Source: a bacterium
GTDB lineage: Bacteria; Patescibacteriota; Patescibacteriia; SBBB01
Reading direction: 5' to 3'
Length of the DNA: 64,000 nucleotides
Assembly: GCA_005239895.1 (NCBI GenBank)
Contig: SBBB01000025.1
Coordinates: 98,170-162,169, forward strand
Below the pieces are notes generated by a model, which had not been told where the DNA came from, ran no database searches, and saw only the letters and a program-made list of their open reading frames with translations. Both the position numbers and the translations under genes were made by a program. This document shows, piece after piece, positions 5,433-52,094 of this stretch (its first letter is position 1; each line of letters begins with the position of its first letter).

Positions 5433-5927
5433 ATGTCAATAGGAAAAATTTTTACTACCCACAAAAGAATTTACTACGATTATAATATTTTAGAAACTTT
5501 AAACGCCGGGATAGTATTAACAGGCCCGGAAGTTAAATCCGTCAAAAACGGACAGTGTAAACTTGACGGCTCTTATGCTATTTTAAAAATGACAAACTTA
5601 AAAAATAAATATAACACGGAACTTTTTCTTCTCAATGCTTATATTTCTCTTTATAAACCAGCTGGAGAATCAAAAAATTATGACCCCCAAAGAAGCCGCA
5701 AGTTATTATTAAATAAAAAGGAAATTAAAAATTTAAGCAATAAATTAATAAATAAACGCTTGACATTAATACCAATTAAGATGTATAATATGCATAATCG
5801 TGTCAAGGTTGAAATCGCCGTGTGTCAAATGAAAAAAAAGATTGACAAACGGCAATTAATCAAAAAACGAGAAATAAACCGAAAAATTCAAACTAATCTC
5901 CTGCAATCTCACAAGATTCGGGGATGA
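5433..5927 (+). CDS. smpB: SsrA-binding protein SmpB
   Basis: YYDYNILETLNAGIVLTGPEVKSVKNG matches the SmpB consensus, and tmRNA sits immediately downstream. Confidence 0.9.
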   Translation: MSIGKIFTTHKRIYYDYNILETLNAGIVLTGPEVKSVKNGQCKLDGSYAILKMTNLKNKYNTELFLLNAYISLYKPAGESKNYDPQRSRKLLLNKKEIKNLSNKLINKRLTLIPIKMYNMHNRVKVEIAVCQMKKKIDKRQLIKKREINRKIQTNLLQSHKIRG

Positions 5928-6335
5928 TCGGTATTGATAGTAAGTTTAATAGTAAGATTTGCAAGTTATGCTAAGCTCTTTAATGCATATAAAAATTTTA
6001 GGAGCAATCAATAAATGCAAAATCATTTATTAGCAAGGTTAGGTTGGCTTTAGATAACATCTTTAGCTCTCCCAGTTTTGCGCCTGTGGTAGCCTAACAA
6101 GACCACCACCGTCTATCTTTTTTTTCCTAAAAGAAAGAATAGATGTTATATCTTAGGATTATTCTATGATCATTGATTATTAGATCATAAAATAATGTTA
6201 CAATAATCAATAATTCTGGACGTTTCTTGTTCGAGTTCAGAATTTATTAAGGGTTCACCCAAAAAAATAAGATAAACTTGTAGACAGTCTAACTATTACT
6301 TATTAGACGCGGGTTCAATTCCCGCCATCTCCACC
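5920..6335 (+). ncRNA. ssrA: tmRNA (ssrA)
   Basis: The 5' end GGGGATGATCGGTATTGA resembles the tmRNA acceptor/D-like start. The 3' end GACGCGGGTTCAATTCCCGCCATCTCCACC is a tRNA-like T-arm plus acceptor that pairs with the 5' GGGGATG. Adjacent to smpB. A possible tag ORF (gca aaa tca...gta gcc taa) is uncertain. Confidence 0.75.
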
Positions 6336-37482: not shown

Positions 37483-39261
37483 TTACAACGAAGAAAGTTG
37501 TTCAATTTTCTTTTGAATTTTTTCTTCTTGACCGCGGCGAGCAAAATCATAATTACCTAAATTTGCCAACATGTATTCAGTGACCAAAGGATAAACTTTT
37601 TGTAATAATTTAAATTTTTCTTGTTCAATATATCTATAATCCGTATGACCTTCGGGAATAGTTCGAAGCTCAATTTCCCAAAAACATTCCCGTAAATTTT
37701 GGAATTGCATAAAACGAATACGATGTGCTAAACACGTCGCATATTGCGCCAACTCTAAATCGTGTTGCGCTATTTTATAATACAAATCCTCTACTTTATT
37801 TATAGCTGAAGAAAACTCGCTATCTAATTTAGATTTTATTAATTCTGGAGCTACGTCATAACTATGATCACAAGTAAAATTTTGCTTTTGTTGCGTAAGC
37901 ATACGATGACGGTGCAAATCGCGCCAAGCGCCCAAATTCATAACGATTTCAAATCTAACATAAATATTTTCAAAAGCTCGACTTACTTTTTGCCACCTAA
38001 ATTTCCTATCTTGTAAATGCACCTTTAAAATTTCTTTTTTCTCTTCAACTGTTAAAGCTTTAACGGTTTGCAAAATTTTATTCCACGAAAGATGATTATT
38101 TACAGCTGAATAAAGAATTCCCGTAATAATTTTATCTTCTCCGTCAGTGTCAAATTCAACTAACTGCACGCGCGGACCAGTTTCTACTTCTTTCAAACTA
38201 TCTTTAAATAACCCTTTTACTACTGGCACGGTTTGTTTATTTTTATGACTTAAATATTTTTGATACTCTTCAATCATGTCTTTTCTAGTTTCATCTTTAA
38301 TACGCCTTAAAAATGAAGGTGTAATTTTATTCAACTCTTGATAAGCCATTTCTCCTGCCCAACGAACTTCTCCTAAAGAATGCCCCAAAGAGCGATTGAT
38401 CATGTGCTCAAAAGATTGCCCGTTGCCAAAAAATGTTACTTGCGAAAGTGTGGCCATGGGCAAAAGCCCCCTTAAAATATCAAACGCCTTCTTTTCTACC
38501 ACGGATTTTTTTTCTTCAGGAAAACGATCTTGCAACCACGCGGAAAGTTTAGGTAAAAGATCAATATAAGTTTCAAATAAATTATCCATAACAGTTTTAT
38601 ACTCTGCATCTAATCCTATATCTTTGAGGGTTGGATCAATATAATACTGATATTGATTATTAATTTTTTGAGCATAATTAACATAGCGCGTGGATTTTTC
38701 AATCGGAGCCAAACCAATTCTCTGATCTTCAAAATGTTTAATCACAATTTGCGAAACCCCTGAAAAAGCAAGATGAGTACCTGCCATTTGCGCAATAGAA
38801 TCATCTCCGTACTGAGCCAACCATTTAATATAAAAAGAACGAGCGCGCGGATTAGCAAAAAACTCCAACAAAGAATGATCCTTAAAAAAATTTAAAAAAT
38901 CATAAAGTTCCTCGCCATATTTAATAGTAGCTTGCCAAGCTTCGCTGGTTTCATTCTCTTGTCGAACAGGATTTAAAAAAGGATCTATAAATTCACGCAA
39001 AAAAATATGTCGCAAATCCGTCGTGGCTCGACTGGATCGCGAACAAAGAGCGCCAATTAATTCGGGTGATAAAATTAGAGGCACATACACAGATTTGTCT
39101 AAATTAGTAAAAAACGGCTGTAAACGAAGCTTTTCTTTATCTGTATACTCGTCTTTTTGAAAAAGTGGTGCAAATTCTTCTAAAGAATGTTTATTAATCA
39201 TATAATTATTAGTACTATAGAATTTTTTAAACAAATTATCAAGATCTGGTGTTTTTGTCAC
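37483..39261 (-). CDS. thyX: FAD-dependent thymidylate synthase ThyX-like protein (long form)
   Basis: AWRDLHRHRMLTQQKQNFT contains the ThyX RHR-x7-S signature. At 592 aa it is about twice the canonical length. tmk and xth are nearby. Confidence 0.5.
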   Translation of the reverse strand: MTKTPDLDNLFKKFYSTNNYMINKHSLEEFAPLFQKDEYTDKEKLRLQPFFTNLDKSVYVPLILSPELIGALCSRSSRATTDLRHIFLREFIDPFLNPVRQENETSEAWQATIKYGEELYDFLNFFKDHSLLEFFANPRARSFYIKWLAQYGDDSIAQMAGTHLAFSGVSQIVIKHFEDQRIGLAPIEKSTRYVNYAQKINNQYQYYIDPTLKDIGLDAEYKTVMDNLFETYIDLLPKLSAWLQDRFPEEKKSVVEKKAFDILRGLLPMATLSQVTFFGNGQSFEHMINRSLGHSLGEVRWAGEMAYQELNKITPSFLRRIKDETRKDMIEEYQKYLSHKNKQTVPVVKGLFKDSLKEVETGPRVQLVEFDTDGEDKIITGILYSAVNNHLSWNKILQTVKALTVEEKKEILKVHLQDRKFRWQKVSRAFENIYVRFEIVMNLGAWRDLHRHRMLTQQKQNFTCDHSYDVAPELIKSKLDSEFSSAINKVEDLYYKIAQHDLELAQYATCLAHRIRFMQFQNLRECFWEIELRTIPEGHTDYRYIEQEKFKLLQKVYPLVTEYMLANLGNYDFARRGQEEKIQKKIEQLSSL

Positions 39262-47137: not shown

Positions 47138-47253
47138 TTATCCACAGTTTTTAGTGGTTATTAACACTTTTATCCACTTTTATACACTGTAGATACACTA
47201 TACACCACCTATAAATATAAATTCAAGTAATATTTACTAAAAACTGTGGATAA
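47138..47253 (-). promoter_or_regulatory. Candidate MraZ operator: five or more AGTG[GT][AT]T boxes at about 10-11 bp spacing upstream of mraZ (two read as perfect DnaA boxes TTATCCACA on the opposite strand)
   Basis: Minus strand reads GGTGTAT AGTGTAT CTAC AGTGTAT AAA AGTGGAT AAA AGTGTTA ... CTGTGGATAA. DnaA-box-like 9-mers sit at 47138-47146, 47170-47178 and 47245-47253. Confidence 0.5.
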
Positions 47254-47413: not shown

Positions 47414-47626
47414 ATGAGTAAGGATACCGCGGCACCAAATTTAAAATCTTCAATATCTTTAGAGTGTCCCTGTTGCACCAATTTAATGAAACCAGACGAA
47501 ATAACATGTGTGCGTTGTCATGTAGTCTCTACGGTCCACCAGCGGAACGAGCTATATCGAGAACATAGCACGCATATCAAGGAAAGTGCGGAACATAAAT
47601 TCCGCTCCTACTTAGCCAATTTGTAG
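47414..47626 (+). CDS. Small zinc-ribbon protein (ECPCC...CVRCH), paralogue A
   Basis: SD AAAGGAG upstream of the ATG. CxxC-x13-CxxC. Shares ECPxCxNLMxPxE..C..CH..ST..QR..L..EH..HI with the ORF at 47914. Confidence 0.55.
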   Translation: MSKDTAAPNLKSSISLECPCCTNLMKPDEITCVRCHVVSTVHQRNELYREHSTHIKESAEHKFRSYLANL

Positions 47627-47913
47627 CTCTGATCTAATTGAAAATTAGGGTATTGACTTTTAAAGCAGTTTTTAAAAACTGCCAAAAACTTATACCGCAT
47701 TATCGAACAATGATAATGCGGTTGTCTATTTTAAAAATTTTGATAGGTTGTATTTTAAATCATAAATCATAAATCTTATATCTTAAATTACTTTCAACTT
47801 TCAACTTTATAAACCTTCTAACTCTTCTAATTGACTCTGGTCTTAAAATTTATTAAAGTAATTAGTATGGTTTTGAGTTTTTGGTGTATAAATTATTAAG
47901 GAAGGAGGATTAC

Positions 47914-48156
47914 GTGGATAAAAAAGTTAGAAAAAAACCTTCAAATTCTTTTGAGTGTCCAGGTTGTCCTAACTTAATGGAACCAACAGAAAAAGAATGT
48001 CAAAAATGCCATTTATGTTCTACATATCAACAGCGTCGTGCGCTCCAACACGAACATGGTGTGCATATTTATGTAAGCACGGGATATAAACATACAGCCG
48101 AGGAAGACCTACCTTTTATGGAAAACGCCCGAAGAGTGCACGAAGGAGATTCCTAA
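47914..48156 (+). CDS. Small zinc-ribbon protein (ECPGC...CQKCH), paralogue B; GTG start inferred
   Basis: Strong SD AAGGAAGGAGGA 6 nt before the GTG at 47914. The ORF-track ATG at 47881 would place the SD inside the coding sequence. Confidence 0.5.
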   Translation: MDKKVRKKPSNSFECPGCPNLMEPTEKECQKCHLCSTYQQRRALQHEHGVHIYVSTGYKHTAEEDLPFMENARRVHEGDS

Positions 48157-48196
48157 ACCATGCTGTTAAAATCAATTGTTGTAAACAACTCATCAA

Positions 48197-48237
48197 AGTC
48201 TCCGAATACTTGCTGTTATTCGGAGACTTATCTTTTT
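48197..48237 (+). terminator. Strong rho-independent terminator (AAGTCTCCGAATA...TATTCGGAGACTT plus ATCTTTTT)
   Basis: 13-bp perfect stem and T-run directly after zinc-ribbon paralogue B. Confidence 0.7.
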
Positions 48238-48419
48238 AAAAAAGGAAGCTTTTGATTTAAACAAAAGACTTCCCAATATTTTTTGGAACCAATCATATAA
48301 TGATGTATTGAGTTTTTAAAAAATTCTTAAACCCGTCAATTTGCCAATACAAACAAACTTCAAGGGGTTGATCGTAAATAATATGATCAACCCTCCATGC
48401 AAACTATTTCATCTTTTAA

Positions 48420-48608
48420 TTAATTATGCGAGTGTGCATATGCATTTCTGCAGGCCTTTTTGTCAAAGTATGTAATTTTGTTGTTGAGGTTAATACCCCA
48501 GCGCCTACGAAATATGAATGACCTACATACAATACACACCAACCCACGGTCAATTAAATAAGATTGTAATTTCATAAACCAGTTTAATCTGATAATCCAG
48601 TTTGGCAT
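48420..48608 (-). CDS. Small hypothetical protein (62 aa, CIVC)
   Basis: SD AAGGAGG 7 nt upstream of the ATG on the minus strand. A hairpin GGGTTGATC...GATCAACCC lies downstream. Confidence 0.4.
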   Translation of the reverse strand: MPNWIIRLNWFMKLQSYLIDRGLVCIVCRSFIFRRRWGINLNNKITYFDKKACRNAYAHSHN

Positions 48609-48840
48609 TGCACGTTCCTCCTTATATTTTGCCTTTTTATGGCATTTTTACTGATATTATAACAATGATAGAAAAAAGCAATTTTGTCAATTCCTATCGG
48701 TAATGGCAGAAATCCAACCATAATCTCCTCTTGCTTTTTATCTAAAAACGTGCTATAATATAGTATTGATTTGTACCTTTATAAAAACACAAACAAATTT
48801 CGCAAATCTATTTATATAAGCAATTCAGTGGATAAAAAGT

Positions 48841-50172
48841 ATGGATTTTAATTTGGGAGATATATTAACAAACCTGGATATTTTTTTTTCGGGATCACCT
48901 TTAGATATATTTTTAAACTTATTTAGAAACGGTGGATGGTTTTTTATCTTAATAGCATTTCTAGTGGCTCTTTATAAAAGTTGGATTTTTTTGCGTCAAT
49001 GCAGATATGACGAATCTGTCAAACGTATTGTTTTGTCACTAACATTACCCAGGGTAAACACTAATAAAACTTTAAAATCTGTAGAAAATATTTTTGCGCA
49101 ACTAGCTGGAGCACACACAACTTTTAACTTATGGGAAACCTATGTTTTGGGAATATTCCAGTTAAGTTTTAGTTTTGAAATTGTTAGTATGAACGGCCGT
49201 CTGCATTTATTTGTGCGTACGCCGGTTAGATTTAAACCTCTAATTGAAAGTATTTTTTACGCGCAATACCCAGATATAGAAATTACCGAAGTAAATGACT
49301 ATGTAAACAGTGTTCCCAATACATATCCTGATCCCAATTATGATATCTGGGGCACGGAATTTATTTTAGTCAAAGATCAGTCCTATCCCTTACGTAGTTA
49401 TATAGAATTTGAAGAGCAACTGAGCCAAGAATTAAAAGACCCTATGGCTGGAATGTTAGAATGCTTAGGTAAACTCGGACCAGATGAACAGGGTTGGTTT
49501 CAAATTATAGTTAAACCCATAGCCGACACAGATTGGAAAGAGGGTAGCAAAAAAATGATTGATAAAATTTTAAAACAAGAGATTAAACACAGTGGACTGG
49601 GAGCGTCAATATCTAATGCCGCATCTAATGCCGCGTATAGTGGAGTTGAAATGTTTAATCAAACGTTATGGGGAACTGAACCAGCAGCTGCAGCTAAAGT
49701 TCAGGCCGGAGCTGATCAAAGCAGATTAAACCTCATGTTAAACCCAACTATTCGCCAAGAATTAGATGCCATTCAAAGAAAAGCTAGTAAAATTGGTTTT
49801 CATGTTAAAATACGGTATATTTACATAGGCAAACACCAATCTTTTGATAAAGCTAGGGGTGTGTATGGGGTAATAGGGGCTATCAAGCAATTAAATAGTG
49901 TTAATTTAAACTCCTTAAAACCAGATATGAAAAAAACAGCCACGCGCGCGTACTATTTTTTTGTTAAATTAAGAGTAAAATGGAAAAAAGAAAAAATAAT
50001 GCGAGGCTATAAAGCCCGCAGCACTGTGCGCGGTCGCAATATGTTCGTCTTAAATACGGAAGAATTAGCCACTCTCTTTCATTTGCCTGTGGATCAAGTT
50101 AAATCACCCTACTTGCAAAGAACCGGGGCTAAAAAGGCTGAACCACCCCTTACCTTACCTTTGGCTAATTAA
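48841..50172 (+). CDS. Single-pass membrane protein of unknown function, co-transcribed with the downstream T4CP-like ATPase
   Basis: N-terminal TM GGWFFILIAFLVALYKSWIFL, 443 aa, no recognised family; 24-nt gap to the next gene. Confidence 0.55.
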   Translation: MDFNLGDILTNLDIFFSGSPLDIFLNLFRNGGWFFILIAFLVALYKSWIFLRQCRYDESVKRIVLSLTLPRVNTNKTLKSVENIFAQLAGAHTTFNLWETYVLGIFQLSFSFEIVSMNGRLHLFVRTPVRFKPLIESIFYAQYPDIEITEVNDYVNSVPNTYPDPNYDIWGTEFILVKDQSYPLRSYIEFEEQLSQELKDPMAGMLECLGKLGPDEQGWFQIIVKPIADTDWKEGSKKMIDKILKQEIKHSGLGASISNAASNAAYSGVEMFNQTLWGTEPAAAAKVQAGADQSRLNLMLNPTIRQELDAIQRKASKIGFHVKIRYIYIGKHQSFDKARGVYGVIGAIKQLNSVNLNSLKPDMKKTATRAYYFFVKLRVKWKKEKIMRGYKARSTVRGRNMFVLNTEELATLFHLPVDQVKSPYLQRTGAKKAEPPLTLPLAN

Positions 50173-50195
50173 TTTTACTAAAAACAATTATAGAT

Positions 50196-52094
50196 ATGAA
50201 TGAAAGCAATGAAGTTAATACTAATCTTAATAACAATGGGGTCACGCCATTTGCTGCGACTACTTTTCGAAATCAACACAGAGTATTTGGAATTAAAAAA
50301 GATGACCGCCGAAGACATGTATATTTAGTTGGTAAAACCGGTATGGGAAAATCTGTAACTCTAGAGCATATGATTTACTCTGACATTCACGCTGGCAATG
50401 GTCTGGCTGTGGTTGACCCTCATGGAGATTTGGCTGAAAAAGTTTTAACATTTATTCCTAATAATAGAATTAATGATGTTGTTTATTTTAATCCCGGCGA
50501 CATTGAATACCCTGTCGCGTTTAATATATTAGAAAGCGTAGCGCAAGATAAAAAACATTTAATTGCTTCGGGATTAATTGGGGTTTTTAAAAAAATTTGG
50601 GCTGATAGTTGGGGACCGCGCTTAGAATATGTTTTAAGAAACACTATCTTGGCTTTATTAGATTATGATGGTTCAACTTTATTGGGTGTAATGAGAATCT
50701 TGGTTGATAAATCTTACCGCTCTATGGTTATACAACATGTCACTGACCCGGTTGTAAAATCTTTTTGGCTGGATGAATACAGTAAATATCCTGATAAATT
50801 TCAAATTGAAGCTATTGCGCCCATTCAAAACAAGGTCGGACGTTTTCTATCTAATTCCCTAGTTCGTAATATAATCGGACAAGTAAAGTCTAGTATTAAT
50901 ATTAGACAAATCATGGATACTAAAAAAATCTTAATTATGAATTTGTCTAAGGGTCATATCGGCGAAGACACGGCCGAACTTCTGGGATCTATGATGATTA
51001 CTAAAATCCAATTAGCGGCCATGGAAAGAGTGGATGTGCCTGAAACATCCAGACCAGATTTTTATTTATACGTTGACGAGTTTCAAAATTTTGCCACGGA
51101 TTCTTTTGCTAATATTTTATCTGAAGCGCGCAAATACCATCTTAATCTTATAATGGCTCACCAATATATTGAGCAACTGGGAGAAATAGTAAAACCAGCT
51201 GTATTTGGAAATGTGGGTAGTATGATTTGTTTTAGAGTGGGCGCTACGGACGCCATAGAATTAGAACCGGAATTTATGCCTCGTTTTACTCAAGAAGATT
51301 TAGTAAATTTAGCAAAATACGAAATGTGTCTTAAGCTTATGATTGATGGTGTTTCGTCCGAACCATTTTCAGCTTGCACCATTCCACCCATAACCAAAGA
51401 TTATAACACTAAAAATACTATTATTCAAGTCTCTCGCGAGAGATACACAAAACCTCGAGCCACGGTGGAAGAAAAAATAGTCAGATGGTCTGAGGGCCAA
51501 AGAACATTACCATCTACCACCAATCCATCTCCAACCTCTAAAGGTTCATCTATGCCGAGCATGAACGATCAACCAGAGGAAGAAAGTAATCAACCGCTCC
51601 AAGAAATAAAATGGTATCCTATCAATTGTAGTCACTGTGGAATTAGCACTGAAGTTCCTTTTAAACCCCTAGAAGGAAAACCAGCTTATTGTAAGGCTTG
51701 TTTAAAAATAGTTAAAGCCAACAAAACACAAACTCCAAAACAAAAAATAGTTTCTGCTCCGGATCAACTCCCCCAACGCGCTCCTGAACAAAAACCATTC
51801 AAACCAGTATTACCTAAAATTAATAATATCAACAATGAAACTATTCAAAATAGAACTTTTCGTCCGGTTACATCCCGTCAAATTTCACCCTCACAAAATG
51901 CGACTCAAGTAAATATAAACAAACCAGTGGATATACGTAGCACACAAAACAATTTTAAACTAACTAAAATTACACCTCCTCAAAATATCATAGAAGAAAA
52001 TACAATCCAACCAACCGAGCAAAATACCCCAACCAGTCGTAAACTACCAATATCTGGTAATCTTAAACCAGGTGATGTAGTAAAAATAGAATAA
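50196..52094 (+). CDS. TraD/TrwB/VirD4-like (type IV coupling protein family) AAA ATPase lacking N-terminal TMs, with a C-terminal CxxC...CxxC zinc ribbon
   Basis: RHVYLVGKTGMGKSVTLEHMI...AVVDPHGDL resembles the TrwB Walker A region (GATGTGKS...IVDPNGD). Walker B FYLYVDEFQNF. C-terminal NCSHCG...CKAC. Low-complexity linker. No TM helices. Confidence 0.65.
   Translation: MNESNEVNTNLNNNGVTPFAATTFRNQHRVFGIKKDDRRRHVYLVGKTGMGKSVTLEHMIYSDIHAGNGLAVVDPHGDLAEKVLTFIPNNRINDVVYFNPGDIEYPVAFNILESVAQDKKHLIASGLIGVFKKIWADSWGPRLEYVLRNTILALLDYDGSTLLGVMRILVDKSYRSMVIQHVTDPVVKSFWLDEYSKYPDKFQIEAIAPIQNKVGRFLSNSLVRNIIGQVKSSINIRQIMDTKKILIMNLSKGHIGEDTAELLGSMMITKIQLAAMERVDVPETSRPDFYLYVDEFQNFATDSFANILSEARKYHLNLIMAHQYIEQLGEIVKPAVFGNVGSMICFRVGATDAIELEPEFMPRFTQEDLVNLAKYEMCLKLMIDGVSSEPFSACTIPPITKDYNTKNTIIQVSRERYTKPRATVEEKIVRWSEGQRTLPSTTNPSPTSKGSSMPSMNDQPEEESNQPLQEIKWYPINCSHCGISTEVPFKPLEGKPAYCKACLKIVKANKTQTPKQKIVSAPDQLPQRAPEQKPFKPVLPKINNINNETIQNRTFRPVTSRQISPSQNATQVNINKPVDIRSTQNNFKLTKITPPQNIIEENTIQPTEQNTPTSRKLPISGNLKPGDVVKIE

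Follow-up and report, generated by a model that had tools for sequence, protein, structure and literature searches.

A conserved two-gene pair of Patescibacteria likely to encode the two halves of a membrane-docked ATPase of the VirB4/VirD4 branch

What can an ATPase of the VirD4 type accomplish that has no membrane anchor of its own and is encoded on a chromosome of the Patescibacteria, with no relaxase or mating-pair-formation genes near it? The question is raised by a 64,000-nucleotide stretch of DNA, here called the window, in which a sequence-only reading had described a coupling protein split over two genes within a four-gene locus, possibly a remnant of a conjugative or DNA-translocation system or an ATPase-based module, perhaps for DNA uptake or defence. 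The five open reading frames of that reading are present, bar small errors in their description (Table 1). On the evidence assembled here, each of the two large genes probably encodes one half of a hexameric, membrane-docked ATPase that belongs to the VirB4/VirD4 branch of the FtsK-HerA superfamily, and the pair is conserved across Patescibacteria.

Table 1. Features of the locus, with the grounds for their assignment
Feature	Position	Strand	Basis or remark
Miniprotein 1 (70 aa, CxxC-x10-CxxC)	47414..47626	+	ORF list; lineage-specific orphan
Miniprotein 1 terminator, bidirectional	47694-47722		
Miniprotein 2 (80 aa, GTG 47914, CxxC-x10-CxxC)	47914..48156	+	lineage-specific orphan
Miniprotein 2 terminator, 13-bp stem	48196-48229		3' of miniprotein 2
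62-aa ORF, Cys/His-containing, candidate gene	48420..48608	-	ORF list and sequence
Gene 1, DUF8128 (PF26449) membrane protein, 443 aa	48841..50172	+	
Gene 1 single TM helix, residues 33-51, WFFILIAFLVALYKSWIFL	48937..48993	+	hydropathy and flanking charges
Gene 2, TM-less VirD4/TrwB-type (T4CP-like) ATPase, 632 aa	50196..52094	+	
Walker A GKTGMGKS, residues 46-53	50331..50354	+	invariant, 20 homologs
Walker B region VDEFQNF, residues 293-299	51072..51092	+	alignment of homologs and TrwB
Treble-clef zinc ribbon CxxC-x17-CxxC, residues 473-503	51612..51704	+	PF23477, TIGR04272
Extreme C-terminal motif LKPGDVVKIE, conserved	52062..52091	+	homolog alignment

In the product of gene 2 the nucleotide-binding domain is joined by a disordered linker to a zinc ribbon, after which come a long disordered tail and a C-terminal motif. 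The motifs from which a VirD4/TrwB-type ATPase had been recognised are all found (YLVGKTGMGKS at residues 43-53, VVDPHGD at 72-78 and DEFQNF at 294-299), the VDEFQNF region aligns with the Walker B region of TrwB, and D294, E295, Q297, N298 and F299 are invariant in an alignment of 20 homologs. The assignment is borne out by a match to PF10412 above its cut-off and by an hhalign probability of 95.6 to TrwB against 1.7 to TrwK, while the CD1115-type VirD4 model NF045973 is also matched (E 5e-11); the housekeeping ATPase FtsK is not a candidate identity, as FtsK_SpoIIIE scores 14 bits vs a cut-off of 24. As in type IV coupling proteins (VirD4/TrwB/TraD/DotL), Walker A and Walker B are separated by an all-alpha insertion, at about residues 117-241, and as in TraD there is a long C-terminal extension. 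Unlike coupling proteins, and as originally described, gene 2 is devoid of an N-terminal transmembrane domain: no TM segment is found, Walker A begins as early as residue 46, and hydrophobicity over 19 residues peaks at 1.29. A second departure from coupling proteins is the C-terminal zinc ribbon, likewise noticed in the first reading, with its four cysteines (C478/C481/C499/C502) invariant among the 20 aligned homologs and scores above the curated cut-offs of PF23477 (45.7 bits, E 5e-12, cut-off 27) and TIGR04272 (44.8 bits, E 7e-12, cut-off 36); small proteins of Methanosarcina mazei with this domain bind zinc experimentally (PMC12704099). The tail that follows is of low complexity and disordered (pLDDT <50 for residues 512-621) and ends in the terminal motif, with a family consensus of LxPGExIKF and a nearly invariant G626. 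If the C-terminal extensions of TraD-type coupling proteins are a guide, the tail would most likely recruit cargo or a partner.

Gene 1 lies upstream of the ATPase gene as had been described, separated from it by 23 rather than 24 nt, and no Shine-Dalgarno sequence was found upstream of the ATPase gene. That its product supplies the single TM helix of the pair holds true, since exactly one is present and a second TM segment was not seen by hydropathy in 20 homologs of the family, while the statement that it has no recognisable domain does not, as it belongs to DUF8128. A short external N-terminus precedes the helix and a cytoplasmic domain follows, with a disordered tail at the end bearing a conserved KKAEPPxxLP motif. 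In the 20 homologs the summed net charge changes from -22 ahead of the helix to +23 behind it, from which an N-out/C-in topology is predicted by the positive-inside rule; since in gp156 of phage G the homologous part is fused to a cytoplasmic ATPase, the large DUF8128 domain must also be cytoplasmic. When the model of gene 1 was compared with structures using Foldseek, the top 12 matches were all TrwK chains (probability 0.97-1.0), and the cytoplasmic part of approximately 360 residues is thus predicted to have the fold of the VirB4 N-terminal domain, with AF2 models of moderate confidence (pLDDT 71 and 63). This likeness is structural only and not at the level of sequence, as hhalign comparisons of DUF8128 with TrwK, pSK41 TrsD and pSK41 TrsJ are insignificant (probability 0.3-0.5; 0.5 for each of the two pSK41 proteins). 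EccE of mycobacterial type VII secretion scores much weaker against DUF8128, with no sequence similarity, and has two TM helices and a place in a different secretion system, in contrast to the one helix of DUF8128.

That the two proteins belong together is suggested by homologs in which both are found on one chain. On the profile of PHROG 5156 the partner aligns to positions 61-366 (E 1e-12), the ATPase to 402-806 (E 2e-57). In gp156 of Bacillus phage G both window genes find collinear matches by tblastn (E 1.5e-7 and 2e-39), and the partner profile aligns with its residues 5-315 at an hhalign probability of 97.3. An 800-aa protein of the Clostridium botulinum plasmid pCLK is matched by the ATPase profile at a probability of 98.8 and, collinearly, by that of the partner at 55 (E 1e-4). 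By these alignments all three are true homologs of the two window proteins, joined in unchanged order within one polypeptide. The proposed coupling protein split over two genes gains from such single-polypeptide fusions, but falls short in that the upstream protein is more than a detached TM domain: because gene 1 contributes a VirB4 N-terminal-domain fold, and because both proteins map collinearly onto the fused chains, the pair reproduces the layout of VirB4 around a motor of the coupling-protein type. The fused proteins, which are uncharacterised, are not identical in design to the two-gene window pair, as gp156 is without the N-terminal TM helix of gene 1 and Pfam detects in none of them the zinc-ribbon family PF23477 present in the window ATPase; also, they reside on phages or megaplasmids beside plasmid-like, VirB2-like or VirB4-like genes, whereas the window pair is chromosomal.

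In overall layout the pair matches VirB4 together with VirB3 (for instance TrwK/TrwM of R388), with a small anchor, an N-terminal domain of ~350 residues and a RecA-type motor, and the fused homologs are, like VirB4, single chains of 800-825 aa. Unlike in VirB4, the layout is divided between two genes in the window, the pair is without sequence similarity to the VirB4 N-terminal domain or PF03135, the motor sequence is nearer to coupling proteins, and the genes lie outside any type IV secretion system (T4SS) cluster. Conversely, a VirB4-N-terminal-domain-like partner sets the window ATPase apart from coupling proteins. Gene 1 would insert one N-out/C-in helix into the membrane and present its VirB4-like domain to the cytoplasm, thus taking the role that VirB3 plus the VirB4 N-terminal domain have in type IV secretion, while gene 2, with its coupling-protein-type nucleotide-binding domain and all-alpha insertion, would be the motor without its own anchor. 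Six such anchors may keep the ATPase ring against the membrane, and ATP hydrolysis would then deliver a macromolecule to a membrane channel made by other proteins or push it through, a pore formed by the six single helices alone being unlikely.

The cargo would most likely be DNA, and less likely pilin or another protein. The fused gene of pCLK nevertheless provides a counterpoint to DNA pumping, as it lies behind a TrbC/VirB2-like pilin gene and overlaps its end, the canonical virB2-virB4 position, and the fused homolog of phage G adjoins a second, TraG-P-loop/VirB4-like ATPase. Together with the VirB3-VirB4-like layout of anchor, N-terminal domain and motor, these neighbours point to a pair that acts like VirB4 and extracts or assembles membrane pilins or small membrane proteins instead of pumping DNA. 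This alternative is rather unlikely, as the motor sequence is closer to TrwB than to TrwK, PF03135 is unmatched, and a conserved pilin-like neighbour is missing among ORFs of >=60 aa at 80 Patescibacteria loci.

Two-gene arrangements with a membrane protein upstream of a soluble VirD4-like ATPase have been described on conjugative plasmids, namely TraI-TraJ of pIP501 and TrsJ-TrsK of pSK41, where TraI has been proposed as the anchor of the TM-less coupling protein TraJ (PMC13037476, PMC12857230). TraI and TrsJ, at about 150 aa with two TM helices, are without a large cytoplasmic domain, in contrast to DUF8128 with about 450 aa, one TM helix and the VirB4-like domain, and unlike the window pair they are accompanied by relaxases. 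A separately encoded protein remotely related to the VirB4 N-terminus, TrsD/TraD of pGO1, pSK41 and pIP501, likewise lies directly upstream of an ATPase of this clade, and TrsD-like proteins are abundant in Patescibacteria (PMC12102498). However, TrsD has 227 aa, is located upstream of a full VirB4 (TrsE) and in Patescibacteria mostly adjoins virB4, whereas DUF8128 precedes a coupling-protein-type ATPase away from virB4.

The pair is widely retained. A DUF8128 profile search recovered 3303 representative clusters at 50% identity; homologs number 1446 for DUF8128 and >8000 for the ATPase, and among the matches listed all organism names given by the source are of Patescibacteria/CPR groups. As far as the database matches are concerned, the best 120 of the >8000 ATPase homologs are 53-75% identical, the best partner matches 39-54%, and >150 columns are invariant across 20 diverse ATPase sequences. 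Among 80 species loci examined, 78 were informative (65 adjacent and 13 with enough downstream sequence to show absence), and in those 65 the next gene downstream, in the same orientation, is the ATPase. The closest relative has the same pair. The other 13 loci imply a partner able to stand alone or an ATPase gene located elsewhere. Housekeeping genes surround the pair in the 80 species, in the window dcw genes, MurJ, an ABC transporter and TatD.

Such conservation bears on the two origins suggested at the outset. A leftover from a decayed conjugative or integrative element would agree with a coupling-protein homolog without relaxase or VirB4 nearby and with the slightly raised GC at 50-52 kb (0.368 vs about 0.32), but is very improbable for two intact, strongly conserved chromosomal genes in housekeeping synteny, with integrase, repeats and tRNA boundary all absent and a single Patescibacteria-type partner in 2.9 million viral contigs. 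Hardly more probable is an anti-phage defence module built on the VirD4-like ATPase and related to MADS mad8 or Dnd/Dpt DptH; PADLOC returns a mad8 match (E 7e-16), but all other MADS and Dpt components are missing, DUF8128 matches nothing in PADLOC, a nearly universal occurrence in the phylum and such strong conservation are atypical of defence genes, and the housekeeping neighbours lend no support.

A more serious alternative, possible although clearly behind the preferred reading, shares the architecture of the latter and differs solely in dependence on a T4SS: the ATPase would be the dispersed coupling protein of an MPF-FATA-like T4SS encoded elsewhere, anchored by DUF8128, and the pair would feed substrates to that system. 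Sequence and fold of the ATPase are of the required type, a coupling protein without TM helix but with a separate anchor has a precedent in pIP501 TraI/TraJ, coupling protein genes are often far from virB4 with VirB4 in 80% of Patescibacteria genomes (PMC12102498), and the T4SS cluster of S. epibionticum is without a recognisable coupling protein (PMC10633639). On the other hand, of 3035 Patescibacteria genomes, 2918 carry VirD4-like genes vs 2417 with VirB4, only 148 of 5713 VirD4-like copies lie near virB4, the phylum has hardly any relaxases (109 in 3035 genomes), and the S. epibionticum t4cp, which may be of another subfamily than the window ATPase, is non-essential while the T4SS genes are essential (PMC12102498). 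VirB4-like genes were found neither in the window nor within 10 kb at the 80 loci. The membrane-docked motor may thus work independently of the Patescibacteria T4SS. Unlike those of coupling proteins, its ATPase gene is chromosomal and found almost throughout the phylum.

Linkage elsewhere is confined to the two large genes, and the four-gene locus is not conserved as a unit. Neither the miniproteins nor the 62-aa ORF belong to the module; they are unrelated, lineage-specific small ORFs that fill the variable spacer from mraZ to the pair and are absent from all relatives: no miniprotein occurs in about 80-82 related loci or has a homolog among 5.8 billion proteins, the miniprotein 2 profile retrieving only itself, and the 62-aa ORF has no match across 80 loci and no gene called in the public contig annotation. 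The miniproteins are true paralogs, as proposed (pairwise 50% identity over 52 aa, E 4e-16), with a cysteine spacing of x10 instead of the x13 given before. Miniprotein 2, which most likely starts at the GTG also used in the public gene call, is followed by the strong terminator that had been noticed, but miniprotein 1 ends in one of its own too, and the small genes are thus separate transcription units. The minus-strand 62-aa ORF possesses, as had been read, its own Shine-Dalgarno sequence, AAGGAGG, 8 nt before the ATG.

The DUF8128 protein of 443 aa and the 632-aa ATPase encoded behind it constitute a real, intact system. In 65 of 80 related loci, each from a different GTDB species, the ATPase gene lies directly downstream of the partner gene on the same strand, so that the retention of the two as neighbours, on which the sequence-only reading had made its interpretation depend, is borne out; of the other 15 loci, two are cut off before this position, and in 13 it is occupied by another gene, usually one for a glycosyltransferase. 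The titles of the 80 loci are mostly those of Patescibacteria/CPR, with a generic or evidently mis-assigned minority, and the source-given organism names among the protein matches listed for both proteins belong to Patescibacteria/CPR groups throughout. For the DUF8128 protein 1446 homologs were detected, the best ones being 39–54% identical, and its profile retrieved 3303 matches, 1120 of them at E<=1e-30, from 1.84 billion cluster representatives. Homologs of the ATPase number more than 8000; the best 120 are 53–75% identical, and an alignment of 20 contains very many invariant columns. A partner of the Patescibacteria type occurs on one viral contig in 2.9 million; a phage origin of the Patescibacteria pair was rejected.

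The surroundings of the pair are of a housekeeping kind, with SecDF upstream in 40 of the 80 loci and MnmA and AlaRS downstream, and in the window with mraZ, rsmH, ftsL and a penicillin-binding protein gene upstream on the opposite strand and genes for a DUF4340 protein, a GldG-like ABC-2 protein, MurJ, a permease and TatD downstream. A decayed mobile element, as in the earlier suggestion of a conjugation remnant, is unlikely, as both genes are intact and strongly conserved and lie in housekeeping synteny. The same holds for the suggested role in defence: the ATPase does match mad8 of the MADS defence system in PADLOC (E 7e-16), but neither the DUF8128 protein nor the miniproteins have a PADLOC match, and the neighbouring genes include none that would complete a MADS, Dpt or other defence system.

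Two observations concern the related loci. In 52–53 of the 80 loci the gene that directly precedes the DUF8128 gene, in the same orientation, encodes a protein of approximately 350–380 aa with sigma-70 region 4 and a C-terminal HARE-HTH domain, while no such gene is found in the window; this may reflect a functional link to the pair or merely conserved synteny. One of the two closest relatives, GCA_964395945.1, has its ATPase gene distributed over three ORFs in frames 3, 1 and 3, either a pseudogene or an assembly error; an alternative genetic code was rejected, as the breaks are frameshifts.

Features of the window and of related loci discussed in the text
Feature	Position	Strand	Remark
Miniprotein 1	47414-47626	+	ORF
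Miniprotein 2	47881-48156	+	ORF; likely start GTG 47914, preceded by AAGGAAGGAGGA; the contig's public gene call agrees
62-aa ORF	48420-48608	-	ORF; no public gene call at this position
443-aa protein (DUF8128)	48841-50172	+	ORF
632-aa protein (ATPase)	50196-52094	+	ORF
Hairpin 3' of miniprotein 1	47694-47722		terminator-like
Hairpin 3' of miniprotein 2	48196-48229		terminator-like
Tail motif of the partner	50134-50160		KKAEPPxxLP
Tail motif of the ATPase	52062-52091		LxPGExIKF
DnaA-box cluster	47138-47253		sites of the consensus type, a short way upstream of mraZ
Perfect DnaA box	47138	+	TTATCCACA
One-mismatch DnaA box	47170	+
Perfect DnaA box	47245	-	TTATCCACA
Further DnaA-box sites	47913-47921; 48827-48835
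592-aa ORF	37483-39261	-	two separate Thy1 (ThyX) matches
tmRNA gene	5920-6335	+	predicted; 26-residue tag AKSFISKVRLALDNIFSSPSFAPVVA
Sigma-70 region 4/HARE-HTH protein	L068:8748-9878; L010:8832-9872		examples; plus 51 further loci
Split ATPase gene, GCA_964395945.1	L083:3807-5723		three ORFs
Phage G gp155-gp156	L087:1196-5338
Phage CP-51 gp96-gp90	L086:829-6314		contains gp91

The nucleotide-binding domain of the ATPase belongs to the VirD4 clade and carries both Walker motifs, A and B; the motifs quoted in the sequence-only reading are present in the 632-aa protein, and both PF10412 and PF02534, which had been proposed for a profile check, score above their cut-offs. Among PDB sequences it matches only TrwB and DotL, and in hhalign comparisons its profile aligned with the R388 coupling protein TrwB with a probability of 95.6 over 263 columns, with pSK41 TrsE with a probability of 80 over 99 columns, and with the R388 VirB4 protein TrwK with a probability of 1.7, over the P-loop only. 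Comparison of the ATPase with related motors gave values of 23.3 for DotL, 22.5 for the C-terminal domain of DptH, 21.3 for TrwB, 21.1 for the VirB4 C-terminal domain, 18.8 for Cagbeta, 16.4 for HerA and 13.1 for FtsK; neither profile cut-offs nor the closest fold place the protein with the FtsK/SpoIIIE or HerA housekeeping translocases, the assignment that would have refuted the sequence-only reading. Judged by its sequence, the ATPase is a coupling-protein-type enzyme; databases name its family 'type IV secretion system DNA-binding domain-containing protein'. In the AlphaFold2 model, with a core pLDDT of 70–90 and disordered tails, eight helices (residues 117–241, confidence 70–88) are inserted between the Walker A and Walker B strands, and the hhalign path spans TrwB residues 116–393, the part corresponding to this insertion, which in the model resembles the all-alpha domain of TrwB, a characteristic of type IV coupling proteins (T4CPs).

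While VirD4, TrwB and TraD anchor their hexamer with an N-terminal transmembrane domain, the ATPase is devoid of one, as had been noticed before: neither the window protein nor 20 homologs have a transmembrane segment, since their maximum 19-residue hydrophobicity is 1.13–1.64, and Walker A begins close to the N-terminus, at residue 46 of the window protein and between residues 35 and 52 of the homologs. The motor is followed by a disordered linker, a zinc ribbon, a low-complexity tail and the conserved terminal motif LxPGExIKF. The C-terminal CxxC ribbon, rightly recognized earlier, is a CxxC-x17-CxxC treble-clef (PF23477, 45.7 bits versus a cut-off of 27; TIGR04272, 44.8 versus 36) with four cysteines invariant in 20 homologs, and is predicted to bind zinc; for small proteins with this domain, zinc binding has been experimentally demonstrated in Methanosarcina mazei (PMC12704099). 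Many ATPase homologs add ISLAEAL in the disordered tail, which is missing from the window protein.

The partner, in which no domain had been recognized, is in fact a member of Pfam DUF8128; according to precomputed annotation, PF26449 matches the window protein and nearly all homologs listed. Its single transmembrane helix, as previously read, spans residues 33–51, and the flanking charge, summed over 20 homologs, amounts to -22 on the N-terminal and +23 on the C-terminal side of the helix, which places the large domain in the cytoplasm. The AlphaFold2 model (pLDDT 71, pTM 0.68), when searched against the PDB with Foldseek, retrieved twelve TrwK chains at the first ranks. P-loop NTPases are absent from its significant fold matches, while the ATPase model matches hundreds; the match lists thus suggest that the partner resembles the VirB4 N-terminal domain and not the motor. 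The TrwK structures were released in 2022, later than the AlphaFold2 weights used, so that the fold has not been memorized. At the level of profiles, hhalign found no significant similarity of the partner to TrwK, pSK41 TrsD or pSK41 TrsJ, PDB sequences gave nothing at E<=10, and all 20 DUF8128 alignment members yielded only noise against a Pfam copy that lacks PF26449. Like the ATPase, the partner has a conserved motif in its disordered tail, and in most homologs a second one, KGxPPxNLP, is found at the extreme C-terminus, but is missing from the window protein; these short tail motifs of both proteins look like putative short linear binding motifs for some further protein.

Homologs in which both halves are fused have been identified in phages and plasmids. 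The PHROG family phrog_5156, of 824 positions and without assigned function, is matched by the partner at 61–366 (E 1e-12) and by the ATPase at 402–806 (E 2e-57), and both window genes match Bacillus phage G gp156 (825 aa) collinearly in plain tblastn, with gp156 aligning to the partner profile with a probability of 97.3 (E 2e-11, 305 columns). An 800-aa homolog covering both halves is encoded on 18 megaplasmids of Clostridium botulinum/sporogenes; the pCLK protein aligns with the ATPase profile with a probability of 98.8, while its match to the partner profile is weaker, with a probability of 55 and an E of 1e-4, and runs collinearly over 291 columns, the EELAxxxHxP region among them. Fusion of this kind is a classical argument for joint action of the two Patescibacteria proteins, and it requires both in the same compartment. 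The gene gp155, for a VirB4-like ATPase (TraG-P-loop/AAA_10), directly precedes gp156. Phage CP-51 encodes an ATPase homolog of 911 aa, gp91, between genes for an Alp7A-like actin and a Replic_Relax protein; clear homology is confined to the ATPase half of gp91, as a comparison of the N-terminal half with DUF8128 established no link (hhalign probability 1.1). The surroundings of gp155–gp156 and of gp91 look like plasmid-type DNA-handling modules in phage genomes.

The architecture of the pair is therewith well supported: gene 1 provides a VirB3-like anchor and a VirB4-like N-terminal domain, gene 2 a coupling-protein-type motor with a cargo-adaptor-like tail. We propose that together they probably form a membrane-docked hexameric motor, which would pass a macromolecule on to a channel that other proteins provide; DNA is the default cargo for this clade. 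In VirB4 proteins the N- and C-terminal domains reside in one polypeptide encoded near virB3/virB2, while here, as in 65 related loci, they are divided over two genes; the one-chain layout is restricted to the fused homologs, gp156 of phage G and the protein of pCLK, whose gene follows a VirB2-like one. By sequence neither protein belongs to VirB4, as PF03135 (CagE_TrbE_VirB) matches neither the ATPase nor the partner and the motor is not of the VirB4 clade (16 bits for the ATPase against NF045975 VirB4_plasma, with a cut-off of 590). TrsD is known as a stand-alone VirB4-N-terminal-like protein, and pIP501 TraI/TraJ is a precedent for a coupling protein devoid of a transmembrane segment with a separate small anchor. 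A VirB4-like role of the pair in pilin handling is a less likely alternative, for which the overlap of the pCLK fused gene with the end of a TrbC/VirB2-type pilin gene speaks.

Association with relaxase and/or VirB4 genes, by which coupling proteins are classed, does not extend to the pair. In agreement with the earlier reading, tblastn with VirB4 queries from outside the Patescibacteria, of limited sensitivity, found no VirB4-like gene in the 64-kb window or within 10 kb in the 80 loci. It is possible that the ATPase is the dispersed coupling protein of a Patescibacteria type IV secretion system (T4SS). Against this, a 2025 survey found VirD4-like ATPases in 2918 of 3035 Patescibacteria genomes (96%), but VirB4 in 2417, with only 148 of 5713 VirD4-like copies near virB4, and, leaving their role open, flagged these ATPases as orphan T4CPs that may have been exapted for another function (PMC12102498). 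Furthermore, in S. epibionticum t4cp is dispensable where the T4SS genes are essential, which bears on the matter if this copy belongs to the ATPase subfamily treated here (PMC12102498; PMC10633639).

Alternatively, and this we put forward as a tentative and rather doubtful proposal, the pair would be a T4SS-independent translocation motor present almost throughout the Patescibacteria, which, with a VirB4-type anchoring domain and a coupling-protein-type motor, might represent an intermediate or ancestral VirB4/VirD4 state and serve a core role in these episymbionts, such as the transport of DNA or another macromolecule through the one membrane that they have, with the zinc-ribbon tail as cargo adaptor.

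In the searchable literature (DUF8128, PF26449, TrwB_AAD_bind with CPR) we found no description of the conserved DUF8128–ATPase pairing, of a VirB4-like fold of DUF8128, or of the fused phage and plasmid homologs, and the partner is known only as a domain of unknown function. Patescibacteria represent a large share of uncultivated bacterial diversity, with most of their conserved genes devoid of a known role. The ATPase subfamily now gains a defined partner and a concrete architecture consisting of a VirB4-like-domain anchor, a soluble coupling-protein-type motor and a zinc-ribbon tail, whereby the role of VirD4-like ATPases becomes testable, and the pair is connected with fused homologs from C. 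botulinum toxin plasmids and from a jumbo phage of Bacillus. As the family combines hallmarks of both, the finding bears on the divergence of VirB4 and coupling proteins. Saccharibacteria, now genetically manipulable (PMC10633639), can be used to test the pair, provided that they carry this ATPase subfamily.

The ORFs of the locus were all recovered by ORF calling where they had been placed, but a conserved unit of four genes did not hold, as tblastn in the 80 related loci gave no match for the miniproteins or the 62-aa ORF. As parts of the system the miniproteins were rejected, being absent from these loci, and from beside the two closest relatives of the pair, where a PfkB kinase gene takes their place upstream, and having no database homologs: Pfam, NCBIfam, PADLOC and PHROGs gave nothing above noise, and the joint miniprotein profile retrieved from 5.8 billion proteins solely miniprotein 2 itself. 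All three small ORFs are orphans specific to the lineage and lie in a spacer of 1.7 kb that is variable. The two miniproteins are genuine paralogs (50% identity across 52 aa, E 4e-16), while their cysteine spacing is CxxC-x10-CxxC and not, as read before, CxxC-x13-CxxC. The terminator described after the miniproteins corresponds to the hairpin behind miniprotein 2, but miniprotein 1 has one of its own; the sole Rfam match in the spacer, over the terminator, is sub-threshold (24.7 bits versus 100). The 62-aa ORF, with the expected, strong Shine–Dalgarno sequence AAGGAGG at 8-nt spacing, contains a CxxC plus C/H-x-H residues and is the third small Cys-rich ORF of the spacer.

The window is rich in AT, with a GC content of about 0.32. 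Perfect DnaA boxes occur only four times in its 64 kb; if one mismatch is allowed there are 27 sites, 5 of them within the spacer. The cumulative GC skew does not turn at the cluster upstream of mraZ, which is thus probably regulatory rather than a replication origin.

Elsewhere in the window, the 592-aa ORF with two Thy1 matches has about twice the usual ThyX length and may thus have arisen by tandem duplication or fusion. A 164-aa ORF ends at 5927, immediately upstream of the predicted tmRNA gene, whose tag of 26 residues is long for a tmRNA tag.
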